Source: Octopus sinensis (Eukaryota). From it: a stretch of 64,000 nt of DNA. Under the pieces are notes generated by a model. That model saw only the letters and a list, made by a program, of their open reading frames with translations. It ran no database searches and had not been told where the DNA came from. A program made the translations under genes and the position numbers. This document shows positions 15,566 through 63,790 of this stretch, piece by piece. Location: positions 8,556,001 through 8,620,000 of the forward strand of contig NC_043017.1 of the NCBI RefSeq assembly GCF_006345805.1, read 5' to 3'. Positions within the stretch are counted from its first letter, which is position 1, and each line of letters starts with the position of its first letter.

Positions 15566-15626
15566 CATGATGTCACACGCTGATGAAAGGTAAACACCTT
15601 GAAACTCGGGTACGTGTGTAATCATG
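15566..15626 (+). ncRNA. Type I hammerhead ribozyme motif
   Basis: CACACG-CTGATGA-AAGG taaaca CCTT-GAAA-CTCGGG-TA-CGTGTG: complete core, 6-bp stem I extended by CATGAT/ATCATG, 4-bp stem II, GUA cleavage triplet. Confidence 0.75.
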
Positions 15627-22013: not shown

Positions 22014-22950
22014 CAGGGTGTGAGGGGTATTTGAGGACATTTCGTTTTTAGTTCATTACACCTTCAAATTATTTAATGTAGCATTGTTATTTTCCCATAA
22101 CCCTTTCAAGAAATGAAAAAACATGCAGTCATAGTTGCTATACACGCAAACCACAGCGATTTAGAAATTAGCAACTTTCTAAATGTTGCAAGATCTTTTG
22201 AACACAAAGTTCGGTTGGAATTGGAGGCATGTGATGGTAATGTTTCACAATGCTCAGACACTAAAAGGACACTGGAATTTATACAGCATGTTCAAAACAT
22301 TATCGATGAAAACCCCAGAAAGTCAATGACATCCATTGCTAAAAAACTTTGGGTGTCAGAGTGGACTATCAGAACTGTGGTACATCGTGACATTCGATAC
22401 AAGTCCTATGTAATGAGGAAAGGCCAATTCATGTCTAGAAAGACAGGAAAACCGTTTCTTCTGTTGAAAACCTTCATGAACAAGGTTTGCTTTGGTTTTT
22501 CTCTGATGAAGAAACTCTGATCAGGATCAAAAGTCTAACAGAAGAAATGACTGGTGGTTATGTGCAGATCTTTCTGAAGTACCCAGAGTGATGCACACGA
22601 AATTTCCAGCAACTGTGATGGTTTTAGGAATGGTAAGTAGTGAAGGTCATGTGATGCCGCCCCACTTTTTTCTACAGGGTCTTGGAATTAAGGCTGCTGG
22701 ATACATTGAGGTACTGGAAACTGTTATCAAGCCCTGGATTGATGAAGTATGCAATGGGAAGTCATACGTGTTTCAACAAGACTCAGCACCCTCTCACAAA
22801 GCCCTACTCATCCAAGAATGGTCGTCAGATAATTTTTACGATTATGTAGCACCCAATATGTGGCCTCCGAACTCACCAGATTTGAACCCCCATGGACTAC
22901 TACATGTAGAGCGCTGTTGAAAGGGAGACTAATCATCATCCTCATAATAC
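22012..22950 (+). mobile_element. Degenerate, 3'-truncated DD37D (maT) Tc1/mariner-superfamily transposon
   Basis: Starts TA-CAGGGTG after (TA)n. Frameshifted transposase with FSDE, VMVLGMVS, FQQDSAPSH and WPPNSPDLNP(M)DY; 37 residues between the 2nd and 3rd Asp after correcting one frameshift. Confidence 0.85.
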
Positions 22951-28183: not shown

Positions 28184-29192
28184 TGTTAAAGGGACAACTG
28201 TTTGTGGTATATTCAGCCACATTCCACACTATAATACATGATGGGCTTACCTGTAATTTAAAGGACCAGTCTTGATTCTCCCTGATGGTTATATTAACTC
28301 TTTTGTTACTGTATTTATTTTAAGATGCTCTGTGTTTCTTTCAATTCATTTTAAGTATATACAAAGAATTTAGTAAAATAACTAAGTTCTTCTTGTGACT
28401 AAGTTTTGGTGGAAGATTTTCATTCAAATCTTATGAACATAAGATATTTGTACTCAGAGCCAGAGCCGGTTCCAGCCGGGTTGGTAACGAAAGGGTTAAA
28501 GGTTCATGTCTGTGGAATGTCAGCCATTTACATTCCAGGACAACAATTTCTTCTGGCTTTTCATGTTTTAAGTTTAAATAATATTTCTCCATGGTCAGAC
28601 ATGTTTTCTATGACAGATTGGAATTGAGTACTGCTTACAACTATCATATGATGATGATGATGATCATCATCATCATCACCATCATCATCATTACCATCAT
28701 TTTCCATGCTGGCATGGGTTGGACGGTTTGACTGAAAACTGGTAAGCAGGGGAACTGCACCAGGTTCCAATCTGCTTTGGCATGGATTCTATGGGTGGAT
28801 GCCCTTCCTAATGCCAACTACAAGAGTGTAGTGGGTGGTTTTAACATGACAAAAAGACACAACACACACACACACACACATGAAATTCTTTCAGTTTCCA
28901 TTTACCAAATCCAATCACAAAACTTTGGTTGGCCTAGAATTGTAGTAAAAGCTGCTTGCTCTGAGGTGCCACACAGTGGGACTGAACCTGAAACCATGCG
29001 GTTGGGAAGCAAACCTCTTAACCACACAGCCATATCTGTATCTATATTTATATGTATTTATGTGTACATTCGTGTGAGTGTGTGTGTGTGTGAAAGAGAG
29101 TATTTTGTATCCTTTCCATCAATTGTTCTGTTGCAGCCGAAGACTCTGAAGTGAAGAATTTACCAATTTTCTTTTGTTTACTTCATCTTTAG

Positions 29193-31370
29193 GCCAATGC
29201 CAGAGGAATCTTTGCAGACAGATTCTCCAGAGAGCTCTGAGATAATGCCTCGGGCCAATAAACCCTATAACAGCACACAGCATAACTATAAAAAAAGCAT
29301 TGAGTATGATGATCCTCCTGCCCACGTCGGTATTGAGTATGAGAGGGAACAGCCTAGCACTAGTGCTACTAATGCTGTTGTAGTTAGTGATGTGCAGAAT
29401 AGTATGGATAGCAACCAGAAGCAGAATAACATAGAAACTACCATTAGTAATTCAGATTCTTCTGGGAAATGGATTGGGTCTGAACACAATATAGTCGTTG
29501 AGAACTATCAGTTCCCTTTGGAGGAAACGGCCAAGAAAGATAACCCAGAAATTATTAAGGAGCCGGAATATAATCGCAACCCTGTAGTTTTAGTCATTGG
29601 CAATACAAATAAAACAAGCAAAGAGAGTAACCATGTACAAAATAACAGTTGCCGTGTACTGCCTCCTGTTGGGGAAGATCTGACAATGGAGCGAAGGAGC
29701 ATCCGTCCTTCAAGGAAACTGTTGCCAAGTTCTGAAAACAAACTCTCCGCTGGCATTGAAGATGTGCAGTGGAGGGTGGATGAGTCTCGAAATTTTGATA
29801 CCACTGTAAAGCGATCGTCGGAATCGATCAACAAACTGCCAGTAAACGAGGAATACCACTGGATCAATACAATCGACGATTCAATCCGTACGATTTTGAA
29901 CAATCATCGTAGACGTAGTCATGATTTCCGTCAAAGTGGTTTGATGCCGCCTGATGTTAATAGACGAGCAAGTGATGGCGGTGAGATATACAACAACTGT
30001 CGAGTGTGCGAAGACTGCAACCCAGCGAATGTGAGGAACAGTGACTACCAAGAAGCTTGCTACAATGGTGGCCGAAAATTTCCTGTGTGTGCCGAGCCAG
30101 AAAGTTATCCGAAACCGAGTATTGTATTAGATTACCACTTTAACGAAAGCATCGACAATGATAGTATTAGCGTACATTTTGAGAAAGACTCGTGGCCAGA
30201 GATGGAGGATGAAGAAGACGAGGAGGAAGCTTTTCATCCAGCTTGTATTCTAGGAGGCTATTACTGTCAGGCCGATTTCAATGACAATGGGGACGAGACA
30301 AGCACCGATGAGAATGATTGGCCAAGTCTACAGAACTGCTCAGATCAAAACCGCAATGACAAAAACAGCTTATGTAATGAAATCCGGTCAAGAGCTCCCT
30401 GTATAGATACGCGACCCTACAGATCAAGATTTGGACGTAAAGACTTGTATAAATTAAAGAATCACCATTCTCACGAAGACAGAACTAGTTATAGTAGGTG
30501 TCACCTTGTGGAATCTAAACAAAGCCAAGAATTTGGAAATATTCACGCAGCATCTAAGGATTATGATTCCTGTTTAGGTATGAACTTTTTCTTAAGAATG
30601 AGCTTTGACGATGGCAGTCTAGTTGCAATCAGTGAAGAGACAATTAATTTGGAGGAGGCTAGCTCCGTGAATTATAGCGACTCAAATCACAGTGATGCAA
30701 AAGGAAGGACGTCACTGGAAGATTTCGAAAGTATAGGTGGCAGCACAGTCAGTGTGTTTAGTTTAAGTGTAGAGAACGACTCCAATGAACAAGCGTGCAG
30801 TATAAGCACAAACAGTTGTAGCTTTAAATCGAATATGGCTGATTGTGATACGTCCGACATCGAAAGCCAGAGGCCAAGCAGCGATGAGAGCAAGCAAAGC
30901 ATTCCTGAATTAAGTAGTCCTTTATTTCCTGTTGATAGATGTTGGCAAAAACTGGACGATTCCTGGTATTTAGGCAGCTGTGATAACTACTACATAGATA
31001 TTCCTTTTAGCCGTAGTTCTAGTCGAAGTAATTCTAGCTCACCTCTCTTATCTGCTTCCTCTACTGCTGCCACTGTTTCTTCCGACACGTTCGGCCGTTC
31101 AAAAGATTCGCAGTCGTTCATCAACGCCGATTCATCTAGTCCAGAAAATCCGTCCTACAGTAATACTTATCTATTTACCGAAGATCAAAGTAGATCCAGT
31201 TTGAGCAATAGTCATAGTTCTTTAGATACTAATCCATTCCAACCTCATACCATGTCGCCTGGGCATTTATTTAGGCAAAGCAGATCCGTGGAGATTAACA
31301 AAGCCCATGGAAGAGGAGAAATCTCTCAATGCTTGATTGCAAACACCATCGCCAGACCTCGTCTTGTTAA
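29193..31370 (+). CDS. Myo3: Giant 2178-nt exon encoding 726 aa of Ser/Asp/Asn-rich, probably disordered myosin III tail
   Basis: Uninterrupted ORF 29197-31593. Pyrimidine tract plus tttAG at 29191-29192; AA|GTGGGT donor at 31371, after which the sequence turns T-rich. Phase 2-2, in frame with both neighbours. Confidence 0.8.
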
Positions 31371-34300
31371 GTGGGTCTTTCTTCTTCATTTCTTCTTTCT
31401 TTCCTCATCAATGTCGGTTCGTGTTATTTTCCCTTTTTTTCTTTTTTGGTCAGTAATGTTTGTTCATTCAGTGCGTCTTTCTTTCTTTCTTTCTTTCCAC
31501 ATCAGATGTTCGTTCATTTGTGGTTTAATGTCTTGCTCTCAAAACCACACAAAAATGCATGATAACATTTTTTTCTTTCTTACATTGGCATGACTATTTT
31601 TGGTAAAACTATTATTACTGAGACCAAATTGGTTTACTGCCTTGTCTCCTTGCCTGTCCATCTGTTTCCGTTCCTTTGTTGAACTACACACTCAACGCAA
31701 CATATCTTGTTCCATTTCTATAGAATTTTTTTAAAGACATTTTTTTTTTGTTATTGCATCATGTTTCAGACTGTTCCCTTCTGCTATCCGTAGCCTGCAA
31801 GGAACCTTTTTTTTTTTCTTTTTCAACTTTTTTCTTAAATTTAATTATTCTTTAAAATTCTTTATTTAACTCTTATGTTTTTCTTCCATCTTTGCATGTC
31901 TTTGAGATGGGAAATTATACAAATCAAAATATTGAAAAAAATACCAAAAAAAAAACCACCCCAGAATAATGTATTTTTCAAAAAAGGAACATTACTTTCA
32001 AACACATTGTCATCACTGTATTGTTGTGTTACCTAACATGTACACACACACACATACACTTGCACACAATCACACACATACTCACATATGTGTTTGTGTA
32101 GTTATGTGTGTGTGTGTGTGTGTTTGTAAGCATGGTAAAGTGGACGGGAGTTTGCAGGAAATGAATATTACAACACAGTTGTTACTATATTGTTGAAGTC
32201 TTTTCACTAATGATCTTAAGAGAAGCATGAATGTCACATCATCACATATACTCTTCCATTAAAAGAAAAACAAATTTTCCATCTTCAAACTACATGGGAA
32301 TAACAAAAAAACATGGGAGATCATGGTGGTGTACTCTGCTAGAGGCACTACTGTACTCTCTCAAAGACATTGGTCTTCTCTCCTAAAGATGCTATGAAAG
32401 ACTTGAACAAACTAATGTGTAACAGAGACAATCTCTTTAATTTTCTATGTCCCATCAAAAGTGAAGACTCATTCTGACCTAGCAATACTGTGATTCAATG
32501 TAGTTAACCAGCATCTGTGTTTTTCCCAAAGTTTGGTGAAGTACATGTCTGAATCAGAGAACCATGCATCCAGGCAAAAGCAACAGGTTTCTAATTACTA
32601 TAATAATAAATGCAAGGTTTGCACAAATATGTTTTAGAAAATGCTTATTCATATGTTTATAAAGTTAAATACTTGGGTAACTCAATGGGATAGAAGTTGC
32701 ATTATGTGTTTGTCCTTGAATTAAAATTCTTTTTCAATGTCACACATAGGAAGAGTGAATGATATTGCTTAGATAAACAAGGCAGAAAATAATATATATA
32801 TAGTACAGGAAACTGGCAAAAAAATGAGACACGGTGAATTCATTCAGCTACCATCTTTCTACTGAAATACCCTGCATTTGTTTCAATTAGTTTTGAAATT
32901 AGTGAAGAATTTAGCAAAATATTTGCTATTATTAAGTTGTTGTTTGGAACATAAACTAACATAGAATTTTGATGAAAGTTTTTAATTTAGATTGCTTAAA
33001 CCTTTTTGCCATATTTCTGTTGAACTATTGTGCATTCATTTCAATTTCAAAAATAATAAAAAATTTAATAGAATAACTGTCATTATTCAGCTGGTGTTTG
33101 GAATATAAATTAACTTAGAACTTTGATAGAAGGTTTTGATGTCAATCACTTGAATCCTTTTGTTACCATATCTCTACAGAAATACATGACCTTTGTTTCA
33201 ATTGCTTTTTTTTAATACTGAAGAATTTAGTGAAATAACTGTCATTATTAAGGTGATATTTATAAGGTAGCAAGCTGGCAGAATGACAAGCATGCTGAGC
33301 AAAATGCTTAGCAGTATTTCACCTGTCTTTACATTCTGGGTTCAAATTCCACCGAGGTTAGCTTTGCCTTTCATCCTTTTGAGGTTGATAAATTAAGTAT
33401 CAATTGAGTGTTGGGGTTGATGTGATCGATTGATCCCCTCCTCAAAAATTCCAGGCCTTGTGCCTACAGTGGAAAGGATTATTGGGGTGATGTTAGGGAC
33501 ATAAATCACAATGAAATTTTAATGGAACTTTTTAATGAGGATCACTTGGAAACAGAAAATTTGTATCTTGGTAAACCAAGGCAGTTTCAGGCAGGTTCGT
33601 ATCAAAGGGGTTAAACAAAGCTTGTTCGTTAAGACTAGCTTAAATTAAAGTTTGCATATGAAAAACAGAATTCTGTTTTAGTGGTACTGACTTCTAATGG
33701 AAAAAACAAAGTGGAAACAACTTAAATTCTGCTTATAAAGCCAAAAATAGCCAAAATATTATATATACTGGCCTCTGAAAGTCCAGAAAAACTAATGAAA
33801 AGCAATTACTAAAATGTCACCAGGGCATAGTATGGCTGAATGGTTGAGAAGTTCTCTTCACAACCATGAGGTCCTGGGTTCAATCACATGTGGGGTACTA
33901 GGAAAATTTCATTTTCTTTAACTTTGGGGCGACTCATACCTTATTAGTATAATGAGGCAGAGAGTAACTGTGTTGGATGGATTGTGGTTGTAATTCAAAG
34001 ATATAGTTTTGTTTGCACTCACTGTTTCATGTTAATTCTGCCTCAGGGTTTCATTAAAGACACATGTGTCTCCTTCATGTTAATTCAGTTGATTAAAACC
34101 TGAAACCTCATTGTTGAAAGCTGGAAATCTATTCATGAATATACAAATATATATATAGATAAAACTTACTTGGAAAAGGATGCGTGGTGTTCGATCATAT
34201 AATAATATATCATCATCATCATCGATTAACGTCCATTTTCCATGCTGGCATAGGTTGGATGGTTTGACTGAGGTCTGGCGAGCCAGATGGCTGCACCAGG

Positions 34301-38230: not shown

Positions 38231-38370
38231 CTTTGAAGCTTTTAGCATAATTACCCTCATCAGACTGTCTACTAAGCCGAAACTTTGAAGTAACTGTTAA
38301 CTTTTTCCTGCAAAAATTATATATATATATATATATATCTGTAAATGTAATATGTGACAATTATTCGGTA

Positions 38371-38440
38371 GCCATGATAAAACTCTGAGTTTCGGATGCC
38401 GAGGTGGAAATCCATGCCACCATCTCTTCAGTTATCCGGC
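38371..38440 (-). ncRNA. Hammerhead-like motif in the antisense arm of the same element
   Basis: Reverse complement reads GATAA-CTGAAGA-GATG...CATC-C-GAAA-CTCAGAG-TT-TTATC, with a 5-bp stem I. Confidence 0.58.
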
Positions 38441-38527: not shown

Positions 38528-38597
38528 GCCGAATAACTGAAGAGATGGTGGCATGGATTTCTACCTCAGCATCCGAAACTTGGAGTTTTATCTTGGC
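38528..38597 (+). ncRNA. Hammerhead-like motif in the sense arm of a Penelope-type inverted repeat
   Basis: AATAA-CTGAAGA-GATG...CATC-C-GAAA-CTTGGAG-TT-TTATC; GUU triplet. Confidence 0.55.
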
Positions 38598-54396: not shown

Positions 54397-55644
54397 TATT
54401 GGGTCATCCCATAAATGCGGTTTTTTCAGATGCATGAACTAAAAGTCAGAGAGGGACGGGATAAACTACCTGCATCAACTTGCTATAAAAGCAGGTAGTA
54501 ATTTTACCATGTGCTTATTCTTAGTGCAAGTTTTGAAGAGTGCAGTTTGATTTTAACAGTCATTTTTTCAAAGCTATAATGGAAATGAGAAAGGGGCATA
54601 TTTTGCTTTATGAGTTCAATAAAGGCAACAACGCAATGGAAAGTGCAAGGAATATTAATGCAGTATATGGGGATTGGACAATAAGCATAAGCTGGTGTCA
54701 GTGGTGGTTCCAGAAATTCCAAGTCGGAAACTACAGTCTAGAAGATGAGCCTTGTCCTGGAAGATCTTCAGAGCTGGACAAGGACATCCTGCAAACTCTG
54801 ATGGAACAAAATCCCATCGTAACTGTTGAAGAACTAGCAGAGGAGCTTGGATTTGGTCATTCAACCATTCATCAACACCTGCATGCCACTGGAAAAGTCA
54901 GCAAATGGGTCAATGGGTTCCTCACAAACTTTCTGAGTCTAATCATGCACAGAGGGTGAATGTGTGCTCTTCTTAGCTGTCACACCTCACAAATGAACCT
55001 TTTGGGGACTGAATAGTGACTGCTGACGAGAAATGGGTTCTCTATAAAAATGTCAAGTACTGAAGACAGTGGGTAGGGAAAGGGGGGATACTGGCACCCC
55101 AGGCTAAAGAAGGTCATCACCCACGTAAGGTGTTATCTGTTTGGTGGGATATGAAAGGCTTAGTCTATTCTGAACTTTTAAACCCAAACCATATGATAAC
55201 AAAGGAGATCTACTGTGAGCAGCTTGAGTAGCTTAAGTTAATGCTAGAAGGAAAATGACCATCTTAGGTTTCAAGACAAAAGGTGGTCTTCCATCAGGAT
55301 TATGCTCAGCCACTTACTGTGACGATGACATTCCAAAGGCTGGAGCAGTTTCAATGGGAAACAATGTCCCACCCACCATATTCATCAGTCACTGCCCCAT
55401 CTGATTATCATTTATTCTGCAATCTTCAAAATCATTTGGACAGAGAAAATATGAATTCTGTAGAGGAGGTCAGAACAGGACTGGAAGAGTATTTTTCATC
55501 ACAGACAAGTGAATTTTGGAAGAGGGGCCTTGCAAGTGTACCAGATAGATGGAAGAGCATTGTAGAAAATGAAGGAGAGTATATTTGAGTTTGCAAAAAG
55601 AACTTTATCTTAATTTTGAAAAATATTTATGGGATGACCCAATA
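54397..55644 (+). mobile_element. Full-length mariner (DD34D) transposon with a pseudogenised transposase
   Basis: TIRs TATTGGGTCATCCCATAAAT / ATTTATGGGATGACCCAATA, about 1.25 kb. Motifs LEDEPCPGR, WVPHKLSE, VTADEKW, HPPYS..APSDYHLF, with several stops and frameshifts. Confidence 0.93.
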
Positions 55645-60117: not shown

Positions 60118-60750
60118 TTAGGTTTGCAACATGAGCAATTTTTGTAATTGAGTTGGTAGGGGTAGTTTAGGTATAACCTCTGGTAGATAACAGTAACCCA
60201 GGGCTTTACGTATGACCAGACAACAAAGATTTTGTAGCGCACAAGGGTTCCTACACAGTGACAATAGCAACTTCTTCACCTTGTTATCCTGACAAAGCTC
60301 TGAAATCAAATCTACACATTTACTGTGCATACCTGATGGACCTGAAGCTTTAATTAACAATTCAAGACTTGTGTTGTCCAAACAGTTCAACCCTCTACTC
60401 TGGACATAGGCAGCCTGCATTAAAGGTGTGTAACCCCTAGTGTTTCTGTTGCACAGATCAGCGTTATATTCAAGAAGTAGTTGGATGATCTTGAGGTTCC
60501 CCTTCAGTGCAGCCCAGCTGAGGGGGGTGTCACTGTTATCGTTGCGGACATCAGGGTCAGCCCCCTGCTGCAATAACACCTGGACACATTCAATCTTGTT
60601 CTTGTACGAGGCCCAGTGTAACGGGGTGTTGCCACTGCCATCACGTGCATTTATGTTTGCCCCATGTTGCAGTAAGATCAGTATGCACTGTTCGTCTTTC
60701 TCGGCTGCATAATGCAAAGCTGTCCTCAGGTAACCATCTAAGTCATTCAC
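60118..60750 (-). CDS. ASB8: Ankyrin repeat and SOCS box protein 8, last coding exon
   Basis: VNDLDGYLRTALHYAAEKDE, TPLHWA and DTPLSWAALKGN closely resemble vertebrate ASB8. C-terminal SOCS box LQNLCCLVIRKALG...LPLPTQLQKLL. Acceptor tttctttcAG at 60751-60760. Upstream exons lie outside the window. Confidence 0.93.
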   Translation of the reverse strand: MNDLDGYLRTALHYAAEKDEQCILILLQHGANINARDGSGNTPLHWASYKNKIECVQVLLQQGADPDVRNDNSDTPLSWAALKGNLKIIQLLLEYNADLCNRNTRGYTPLMQAAYVQSRGLNCLDNTSLELLIKASGPSGMHSKCVDLISELCQDNKVKKLLLSLCRNPCALQNLCCLVIRKALGYCYLPEVIPKLPLPTQLQKLLMLQT

Positions 60751-60861
60751 CTGAAAGAAATCACAATACACTAACTGCACTAATTGTTGCAACAGCTCAA
60801 AAAGGGTGGATGTATGTGTGCACGTACACATATGTATAAATGTATAAGTTTATATACATAC

Positions 60862-62650: not shown

Positions 62651-62687
<37 letters not shown>

Positions 62688-62832
62688 GGATGAATGAATT
62701 ATCTTTTGTTTACTGTTAACATGGAAAATTCAGTAAACAGTTACCAGGGTAGCAAAATTTACGCAAGTAACAAGGATGTAGCAACCTATTCAAAGGTAGA
62801 AACTCCGGGTTAATGTGCAGTAATTTGTATAG

Positions 62833-63015
62833 TATAAGTAAATAAATGGAGTTGAACGCAGATGCTATTCAAATGCTTTTACTTTCTTTCCTGATGAGAA
62901 GATTGCATTTACACCATTTATTCCTTTGGAATAAAACCAATGTTGTCTTCGAAACATATGTCAAGAGTAAAAGAATTTGAATAGCATCTGCATTCAACTG
63001 CATTTATTTACTTAT
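62833..63015 (+). ncRNA. Type I hammerhead ribozyme motif inside a long hairpin
   Basis: CTGATGA (62891), GAAGA...TCTTC stem II with inner TTTATTCC/GGAATAAA, GAAA (62951), palindromic CATATG, GUC triplet. Stem I is about 50 bp but imperfect next to the core. Confidence 0.7.
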
Positions 63016-63019
63016 ATAT

Positions 63020-63790
63020 ATCTGTAATATATGTGACAATTATTTACTTGCCATAATAAAACTGAGTTTCGGCTGTCGGGGTGGAAACCTGCACCGGCAT
63101 CACTTCAGTTATCGAGGCAATCCAAATATGCTATGAAAATGACTATTAAACAAAGGGAAACTACAGTGTAATTGACTGTTATTAAGACAAAAGAGCTATT
63201 AGAATGACCGTTAAATAAGGGGGAAAAAACCAAAGGGGAGGAAGTAAAAAGTAAAGGAGTAAAAATACTCATAGCAATCGCACACCCACGTACATGTGCC
63301 TATATGCATATGCTCATCCACACTCACTTGAAACACACATGCGCACCCACACATACGTCAAAAAAATATACATACCCACACACAAAAAAGTTCCTATACA
63401 CGTCTAAAATATGCACATGCAGGGTGAAAGGTAAAATACAGAAAAAATGTATAAAAATATATAAAGCAATAAAAACATATCTCTATAAATATGTAAAAAA
63501 TATATAAGAAATATATGCAAAATGTATAGAGAGATAAAAAGCTTGTACGTGGACACAATATAAAAAGCAAGTTCTATCTGTGATCTAGGTGGGACCAAAA
63601 ACATAATATTTGGCTACGAGTGGACATATCCAAAAAGTTCAGTTCTTGAATTTAGACATGAAGCAGGGTCTAAGCTGCTTTTCCAGGTGAGCCATCTTTC
63701 CATATCACAAAGACCGCACTTTGCACTGCCGCTGGTGTAAGGCTTACACTTGGCTAAGATCTTCCAATGGATGTTGTAACTGACACCTTT
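63020..63790 (-). mobile_element. 3' part of a Penelope-like retroelement: GIY-YIG endonuclease C-terminus, 3' UTR and hammerhead-bearing terminal repeat
   Basis: 63614-63790 translates to YNIHWKILAKCKPYTSGSAKCGLCDMER...LNSRTEL, matching the WxILxxxxPY...CxLC..E...LNxRxEL pattern of CxxC-type (Naiad-like) PLE endonucleases. 63020-63200 is homologous to 38447-38632. Ends in a TA tract and is interrupted at 63791 by an RTE-type element. Confidence 0.7.

Follow-up and report, generated by a model that had tools for sequence, protein, structure and literature searches.

A probable Penelope-like element remnant with a predicted long-helix II hammerhead in Octopus sinensis

Among the systems described so far, Penelope-like elements (PLEs) of the Hydra clade come closest to the repeat reported here, which lies at positions 62833-63015 of a 64,000-nucleotide stretch of Octopus sinensis DNA (NCBI RefSeq assembly GCF_006345805.1, contig NC_043017.1, positions 8,556,001 to 8,620,000 of the forward strand), hereafter called the window. 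According to Craig et al. 2021 (PMC8557442), the marks of this clade are DKT, RWK, absence of CCHH, CxxC/CxH, a length of less than 3 kb, (TA)n targets and a canonical hammerhead ribozyme motif, and Hydra-1_Obim of Octopus bimaculoides is listed among its elements. The same source describes inverted 5'-truncated copies with a one-sided tail inserted at (TA)n targets, and the helix II elements given in its File S2 have stems of 3-7 bp and loops of 3-10 nt, 10-24 nt in total. Hammerheads with a palindromic helix III are described as acting as dimers, and such motifs as having weak activity in vitro (Cervera and de la Pena 2014, PMC4209133). For an endonuclease-containing (EN+) PLE of lizard, the in vitro work in PMC11167929 describes a protein that cleaves and extends both DNA strands, with two start sites of reverse transcription; hammerhead activity was described there only in the presence of protein, and cleavage as unneeded for in vitro insertion. 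A palindromic helix III in a type I hammerhead is also given as a hallmark of retrozymes (PMC7229834; bioRxiv 10.64898/2026.07.22.740005).

We consider it highly probable that the locus is a dead PLE stub, in which a TA microsatellite contains two 5'-truncated 3' ends placed head to head, and in which the type I hammerhead carried by the right copy would require a dimer to cut after C62962 and is likely impaired. The head-to-head PLE architecture of the locus is already in print. The new finding is the family itself, in which helix II is much longer and a long tail stands at one end.

The hammerhead motif and its hairpin

The copy in the window, designated L001, is described below in plus-strand coordinates. 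The parts of the motif and of the enclosing hairpin are as follows.

62886-62890, plus strand: 5' strand of helix I, CUUUC, positions 2.5-2.1; also the junction microhomology of both copies
62891-62897, plus strand: core strand C3-U4-G5-A6-U7-G8-A9 (CTGATGA), from the sequence and the alignment of 46 copies
62898-62950, plus strand: helix II, 53 nt, consisting of 6 bp closed by G10.1-C11.1, a U/U mismatch, 5 bp, an internal loop and an 8-bp distal hairpin with a UUU loop
62951-62962, plus strand: G12-A13-A14-A15.1 (GAAA, 62951-62954), helix III and the GUC triplet
62963-62967, plus strand: 3' strand of helix I, GAAAG in most copies and AAGAG in the window copy, which has lost the 1.1-2.1 pair
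62833-62883: left hairpin arm, reverse complement of the first approximately 50 nt of the tail
62963-63015: right hairpin arm, tail of the direct copy

An initial annotation of this DNA had claimed a hammerhead core, a long stem II, a CATATG palindrome and arms of about 50 bp, and all of them lie where it placed them. At the base of helix II, GAAGA (62898-62902) pairs with TCTTC (62946-62950), and its closing pair G62898-C62950 stands directly on the core. The helix is extended by GCATT/AATGT and then by TTTATTCC (62917-62924), TTT and GGAATAAA (62928-62935). Helix III consists of the pairs A15.1-U16.1 and C15.2-G16.2 with a palindromic AUAU loop (CATATG, 62955-62960). It is followed by TC at 62961-62962, where the GUC triplet ends, and the cut is predicted between 62962 and 62963.

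Folding of a 201-nt stretch gave -82.3 kcal/mol, as compared with -32.5 ± 3.9 in 200 dinucleotide shuffles (z = -12.7), none of which was as good; the opposite strand also folds (-79.8 kcal/mol, z = -13.6). A strict type I descriptor was then applied to both strands of the window. It required CUGANGA as the core, at least 4 bp in a helix II that is closed by G10.1-C11.1 and abuts GAAA, pairing of 15.2 with 16.2, U16.1, any base but G at H17, and no fewer than four of the five stem I pairs beside the core. This site was the one match, and no match was found in 200 simulated 64-kb sequences with the dinucleotide composition of the window. The presence of the hammerhead motif and hairpin at 62833-63015 is thus confirmed as far beyond chance, and its topology, in which helix III is minimal and palindromic and helix II is long, supports the assignment as a putative type I hammerhead.

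Conservation was examined in an alignment of 46 copies from two subfamilies. The core columns 16-22 were invariant apart from N7. By an eye count over 45 distinct family sequences, core positions were mutated in 13. At the closing pair of helix II, G10.1-C11.1, the rows were G-C in 41, G-U in four and unpaired in one, and the 15.1-16.1 pair (columns 84-91) was A-U in 45 of the 46. Pairing was observed in 91% of 1326 cells, as compared with 35-51% when partners were slid by 1-3 columns. At 1.2-2.2, 25 rows had U-A and 19 had C-G, a compensatory change between the two subfamilies; elsewhere the changes were one-sided. Within a subfamily the copies are 87-97% identical; these copies are young, so that their agreement says little. 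The one informative comparison comes from the second subfamily, which carries CUGAAGA, with N7 changed, and GGAAG/..UUUCC in helix I, and its helix III, CAUGUG, self-pairs in a dimer through two G-U pairs. When one copy of each subfamily was compared, identity was 86% in the hammerhead and 85% in the next 48 nt of the tail, as against 76% upstream and 78% beyond the short end. Helix II measured 53 nt in the window copy; most copies had 54 nt, and those of the second subfamily 58 nt.

In the monomer, helix III has 2 bp and an AUAU loop. This suggests that a second copy or a protein would be needed for activity. The predicted dimer fold of a natural copy reached -45.6 kcal/mol, as compared with 2 x -19.1 for two monomers, and contained both helix II hairpins intact, cores free of pairing and, between the two molecules, a helix III of 8 bp; this agrees with the dimer model for hammerheads with a palindromic helix III (PMC4209133). 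Conservation, pairing and the dimer fold support a genuine hammerhead motif, for which self-cleavage itself is a prediction.

A lack of stem I pairing beside the core in the family consensus had been set beforehand in the initial annotation as a finding that would refute the hammerhead; ordinary family copies do pair there, GAAAG with CUUUC giving five pairs, and the hammerhead reading was not refuted. The window copy differs from these by A for G at 1.1 and G for A at 1.3. Its helix I retains four of five pairs, with an A/C mismatch at 1.1-2.1, and the foldback arm stands in another register in the minimum-energy fold, in which the 50-bp arm is out of register and CUUUC is bulged. The small insertion that had been proposed next to the core is the family's genuine stem I strand (CUUUC at 62886-62890); the disturbance is, as judged from the alignment, a G-to-A change at 1.1 together with the out-of-register foldback arm. 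No second hammerhead was found nearby on the same strand, leaving a single sense hammerhead. The window copy is most likely inactive.

Head-to-head copies and their parent element

Taken together, the left arm and 62685-62832 reproduce the element's own 3' tail in reverse complement. In a comparison with another copy, L012, positions 1583-1779 of L012 align in reverse with L001 1554-1342 (window 62886-62674) at 85.5% identity, and positions 1501-1636 align directly with L001 1550-1684 (window 62882-63016) at 95.6%. The locus is accordingly read from these alignments as two 5'-truncated copies that face each other head to head within a (TA)n microsatellite and have their 3' ends on the outside.

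62654-62684: presumed insertion target, a (TA)n microsatellite adjoining the inverted copy on its outer (3') side
62685-62886, minus strand: inverted 5'-truncated copy, tail only, from approximately the cleavage site to the long 3' end (...CATCCATTTA)
62882-63016, plus strand: direct copy, likewise 5'-truncated, comprising 9 nt upstream of the core, then the hammerhead, then tail for 54 nt as far as the short 3' end (...ACTTAT)

The 50-bp stem exists because both head-to-head copies contain that stretch of the tail, and since the direct copy is only 135 bp long, the unit resembles a 183-bp hairpin. That the unit sits between TA tracts, as noticed initially, agrees with the (TA)n at 62654-62684 on one side and TATATAT at 63016-63022 on the other.

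A search of the 2.7-Gb source genome with the hairpin as query yielded 1881 first-look candidates; 40 of them were scored, and 30 loci were returned. Twenty-five of these 30 match query positions 50-183 only, that is the hammerhead and right arm, at 94-97% identity. The entire hairpin is matched by the remaining five (L001, L002, L003, L007 and L016), and their internal junctions are all different. Ordinary copies have ...GGUUCUCUUUCUUUC before the core and GAAAGUAAAAG after GUC, and helix I pairs right at the core. With the left arm missing in 25 of 30 loci and the junctions differing among the five hairpin loci, the proposal that the 50-bp hairpin is an extended stem I had to be abandoned. 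The remark that the extended stems I and II are unusual holds for helix II; on the side of stem I it fails, as the 50-bp hairpin lies outside the ribozyme. A search for the second subfamily, which is about 80% identical to the first, gave 3016 first-look candidates, of which 40 were scored. By these counts the family runs to thousands of copies.

For an unbiased sample, an exact 27-mer in the tail was used; it gave 108 genome matches and none for the reversed control, and 100 listed copies were analysed.

Foldbacks, in which a 5'-truncated direct copy abuts an inverted copy of the same element: 45 of 100
5'-truncated copies with other, often TA-rich flanks: 23 of 100
Copies collinear for at least 287 nt: 21 of 100
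Copies with internal deletions: 11 of 100

The inner ends of the inverted copies are spread from -485 to +154 nt relative to the 27-mer. For the 79 direct copies whose collinear match ends at 287 nt or less from the anchor, 39 end positions fall in the hammerhead segment of 84 nt; the 84 nt that follow contain 30, and the 118 nt after those contain 10. The curve falls with no sharp peak, and no inference is drawn from it. Family sequence and opposite-strand joints are present in contigs of four public runs guessed to be RNA; contigs of this kind cannot reveal ends or cleavage. In one copy (L136, G000:C8:35249558-35250184) the distal part of helix II is inverted in place, and the fold is almost restored because the inverted part is itself a hairpin.

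Longer copies carry a 142-aa endonuclease (EN) frame upstream of the hammerhead. For this frame and 16 relatives Pfam and NCBIfam gave nothing usable, the reverse transcriptase (RT) and EN pieces were without Pfam match, and word-index protein searches with the frame found nothing. An exhaustive HMMER search with it detected 1585 relatives at E<=1e-3, of which 88 reach E<=1e-10. EN is C-terminal to the reverse transcriptase in the long ones, P0079 (720 aa), P0071 (690 aa) and P0062 (658 aa). These three contain the RT motifs FDIxSFYPSI, LYRDDGL, FLDITL and KP..Y...SNHP, together with RWK, ADKT, a CxC..C linker, and CxxC/CxH around a conserved E and N; ADKT and RWK/RWR are carried by P0079 and P0071. 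Within the family, RT frames were found in L097 and L248, and the linker runs into EN in one frame in L247 and L249. The RT piece of L097 is 33% identical to P0079 (E = 8e-36). The 498-aa RT frame of L248 includes RIRWLAFFF, SDKTGNLY, FIQFDISSFY and LYRDDCLL, with RWL rather than RWK. The EN motifs of the family are CNIC..E..LxN..CKH, and the closest relatives, P0002-P0014, show no conservation of the cysteines located between IY and YIG.

The linker that joins RT to EN is an expanding (AAT)n/(TAA)n microsatellite translated as poly-Asn, which reaches several hundred bases in some copies (e.g. L245, L248 and L250). The (TAA)n run had been taken as the 5' end of the element, and this was rejected when walking upstream identified it as the internal, coding poly-Asn linker. 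Judged by its motifs, the element is a Hydra-like PLE with a reverse transcriptase plus, at the C-terminus, a GIY-YIG endonuclease. The description of the motif as a PLE hammerhead was right. Another RT-EN family (L073-L084, the best obtained via P0060 in the source genome) was tried as the parent and rejected for its different 3' untranslated region (UTR). That family has 31658 first-look candidates and open frames of up to 766 aa, and no canonical hammerhead was seen by eye in the first 520 nt of its 3' UTR.

Two kinds of 3' end were observed. The short end (...ACUUAU) lies 54 nt past the cut site, and the long end (...CAUCCAUUUA) approximately 145 nt beyond the short one, about 198 nt from the cut site; (TA)n usually adjoins both kinds. 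Solitary copies had 23 short, 28 long and 4 other ends. For all 45 foldbacks (loci L099-L243) the other arm was retrieved, and the ends were paired as follows, with the inverted arm named first.

Long / short: 25 rows
Short / long: 6 rows
Short / short: 2 rows
Long / long: 0 rows
At least one odd end: 12 rows

Duplicate rows (L101 and L198, which repeat L100, and L171, which repeats L170) and partner-arm rows (L188 of L189, L134 of L135, L119 of L118) were left out. One short and one long end were then found in 26 of 27 independent events, as compared with 49.5% expected from solitary copies (binomial P = 1.6e-7). The window copy obeys the same rule, with a long inverted arm and a short direct arm.

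These end structures can be explained if the endonuclease cleaves the (TA)n target on both strands, each 3'-OH then primes reverse transcription on element RNA, and the two converging cDNAs are joined head to head. One cDNA would start 54 nt past the ribozyme, giving the short end, and the other approximately 145 nt further, giving the long end. In the full element the hammerhead would be located just upstream of the RT start sites and, as the literature suggests, would process element transcripts. It is possible, although we regard it as rather doubtful, that the two cut strands are primed at different fixed template sites by an asymmetric, probably dimeric particle, and that the long helix II hammerhead may help to position this particle.

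Alternative explanations and neighbouring features

Four other explanations of the locus were considered. In a non-LTR (long terminal repeat) retrozyme, a short non-coding hammerhead repeat would be transcribed, self-cleaved, circularised and mobilised in trans by PLEs. The type I hammerhead with palindromic helix III is the retrozyme hallmark noted above (PMC7229834; bioRxiv 10.64898/2026.07.22.740005), and family sequence is present in the contigs of runs guessed to be RNA. Such an origin is nevertheless quite unlikely: in longer copies the hammerhead is collinear with the RT-EN frame and 3' UTR, the copies are dispersed, with three direct tandem pairs among the 100 listed 27-mer places, all of them duplicated foldback units, and no copy boundary stands at the cut site, as would be expected of circle-derived monomers. 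Still less probable is a long double-stranded RNA element, of any origin, adopted by the host within an intron as a substrate for RNA editing or small RNAs. The near-perfect hairpins of about 50 bp on both strands and a weak, sub-threshold likeness to microRNA precursor models would fit it; the microRNA matches reflect only a generic hairpin, and similar foldbacks occur in 45 of 100 copies elsewhere, so that nothing marks this locus.

The approximately 50-bp inverted arms in TA-rich flanking DNA, and the sharing of the entire 183-bp hairpin form by five loci, could suggest a Stowaway-like miniature inverted-repeat transposable element (MITE) with terminal inverted repeats of about 50 bp, a TA target duplication and a chance hammerhead-like motif. 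We give this very little credence, as 25 of 30 loci have no left arm, the five hairpin forms differ in their internal junction, the arms are the tail of an RT-EN retroelement, the outer ends are unequal, one long and one short, and the TA flanks are microsatellites rather than a 2-bp duplication. The least credible of the four is a chance hammerhead resemblance in AT-rich repeat DNA. The loose pattern CTGANGA-N37-67-GAAAC does give four matches in the window against 0.71 expected, and no Rfam model matches. The full descriptor, on the other hand, has one match in the window and none in the 200 simulated ones, the motif lies in the 3' UTR upstream of the 3' end, where Hydra-clade elements are described as carrying hammerheads (PMC8557442), stem I shows a compensatory change, and the hammerhead is the best conserved non-coding segment between the subfamilies.

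The dead PLE stub remains the preferred explanation, and the following points weigh against it. At E<=10, no Rfam hammerhead model matches the window copy or a clean family copy. The covariation rests on two subfamilies and so counts as one event only. None of the 45 inverted copies ends within 3 nt of the cut site, and among the 79 direct copies an end within 2 nt of it was found for L144 alone, so that a footprint of cleaved template is absent. The family linker (...NNNN..NMVLVSEDNPNRIKFMSNNSKIKNSIYQ) is without cysteines, and the CxCX5C of the Hydra clade was not found in it. The passages on the lizard PLE protein in vitro give no difference in start site between the strands (PMC11167929), and the pairs observed here are nearly always short plus long. 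Priming on two strands is itself proposed by analogy, from the end structures and the in vitro work on the lizard element.

Some of these points can be qualified. In the whole window Rfam gave no match at the gathering score, and at E<=10 the short minimal hammerhead-like motif at 15580 was also without match. As this motif was missed as well, the Rfam models seem blind to this class of hammerhead, and the failure seems to be due to their low power for it. Matches to microRNA precursors (32 bits, against gathering scores of 55-70) were rejected as generic to any long hairpin. Since the linker cysteines are missing, the family is called Hydra-like and not a proven member of the Hydra clade; distant relatives keep them, with CNC plus five residues plus C in P0060 and four to seven residues in P0062, P0071 and P0079. 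The window junction had suggested that the inner end of the inverted arm is the 5' end of a cleaved RNA. This was ruled out by the count of zero in 45 at the cut site, and the window junction is a single value within a wide distribution, favoured by the CUUUC microhomology, rather than a footprint of cleaved RNA.

Other hammerhead-like motifs occur in the window. The motif at 15580-15605 on the plus strand (CTGATGA-AAGGT-AAAC-ACCTT-GAAAC) is a short minimal hammerhead-like core, and the suggestion that the hammerhead family described here is distinct from it was borne out by comparison of the repeat families. A third family, family C, includes a pair of head-to-head motifs at 38389-38431 (minus strand) and 38537-38579 (plus strand), approximately 150 bp apart (CTGAAGAG...CGAAAC), with (TA)n at about 38320-38340 on the left and an architecture like that of 62833-63015. 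Its helix II is in two parts and about 36 nt long, and a long helix II may thus be common in this genome. A further family C repeat has its 3' end at 63021-63125 (minus strand), tail to tail with the window copy in one TA-rich spot. The core of this copy is CTGAAGT, position 9 being T instead of A. One microsatellite is used by two unrelated hammerhead families, family C and that of the copy at 62882-63016.

On the opposite (minus) strand, an open frame at 60121-60849 carries ankyrin repeats and a SOCS box and is of ASB type, apparently the last coding exon. Of the claim that the unit is antisense to an intron of ASB8, an ASB-type gene on the opposite strand is plausible from this exon. Remnants of DNA transposons are located at 54537-54956 and 22510-22917, both on the plus strand, with a Mos1-type helix-turn-helix domain and a DDE_3 fragment. 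An 812-aa frame at 29155-31590 (plus strand) has no Pfam match, is unlike the PLE protein P0079, and was set aside as unrelated.

Significance and comparison with known systems

For annotation, hairpins of this kind would be insertion stubs of PLEs, not MITEs, microRNA-like genes or viroid-like units, and Rfam hammerhead models seem to miss the whole class. For ribozyme biology, this would be a natural hammerhead with a helix II two to five times that of published relatives, kept in two subfamilies with thousands of copies, and it offers a cheap test case for cutting as a dimer versus a need for protein. With regard to the mechanism of retroelements, the present counts (approximately 45% head to head; short plus long in 26 of 27) put numbers on features that the literature gives in words only, and those of the short and long ends bear on the use of both DNA strands. 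If asymmetric priming were true, the long helix II hammerhead would be more than a cutter.

The comparisons below refer to those sections of the cited reports that describe the elements and motifs concerned. With animal non-LTR retrozymes (PMC7229834; bioRxiv 10.64898/2026.07.22.740005) the family shares the type I topology, the palindromic helix III and the link to PLE pseudo-LTRs. Those described there are tandem non-coding monomers, whereas the present copies are dispersed and collinear with an RT-EN frame. The metazoan PLE minimal hammerheads of PMC4209133 agree with it in helix III, whose 1-2 bp and palindromic loop of 2-4 nt imply action as a dimer, in the G10.1-C11.1 pair and in a larger-than-usual helix II. 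They likewise occur as thousands of dispersed, mostly single copies, with opposite-strand pairs 100-700 bp apart. The octopus family differs from them in having no unpaired nucleotide between A9 and 10.1, and its helix II extends far beyond their 6-8 bp.

The inverted pseudo-LTR units of EN+ PLEs (PMC8557442; PMC11167929) show the same arrangement, in which an inverted 5'-truncated copy abuts the 5' end of the direct copy, with outward 3' ends in a microsatellite and a one-sided extension. Compared with these units, the tail is about 145 nt in the octopus family, and the one-sidedness is here quantified (26 of 27 events). Likeness is closest to the hammerheads and elements of the Hydra clade (PMC8557442). 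The hammerheads share the type I topology, the CUGANGA and GAAA cores, G10.1-C11.1, the short self-complementary helix III and a stem I of about 5 bp; the elements share the sense-strand hammerhead in the 3' UTR, the RT with C-terminal GIY-YIG, insertion at (TA)n, and the DKT, RW(K/L), CxxC and CxH motifs without a conserved CCHH. The comparison with Hydra-1_Obim of O. bimaculoides rests on published descriptions. In contrast to the Hydra-clade hammerheads, with a helix II of 10-24 nt, that of the present family is 53-58 nt long, amounting to about 19 bp interrupted by a mismatch and an internal loop. Poly-Asn, encoded by (AAT)n, stands in place of their CxCX5C linker, and the optional tail is about 145 nt long in the octopus family, theirs being 30-40 bp.

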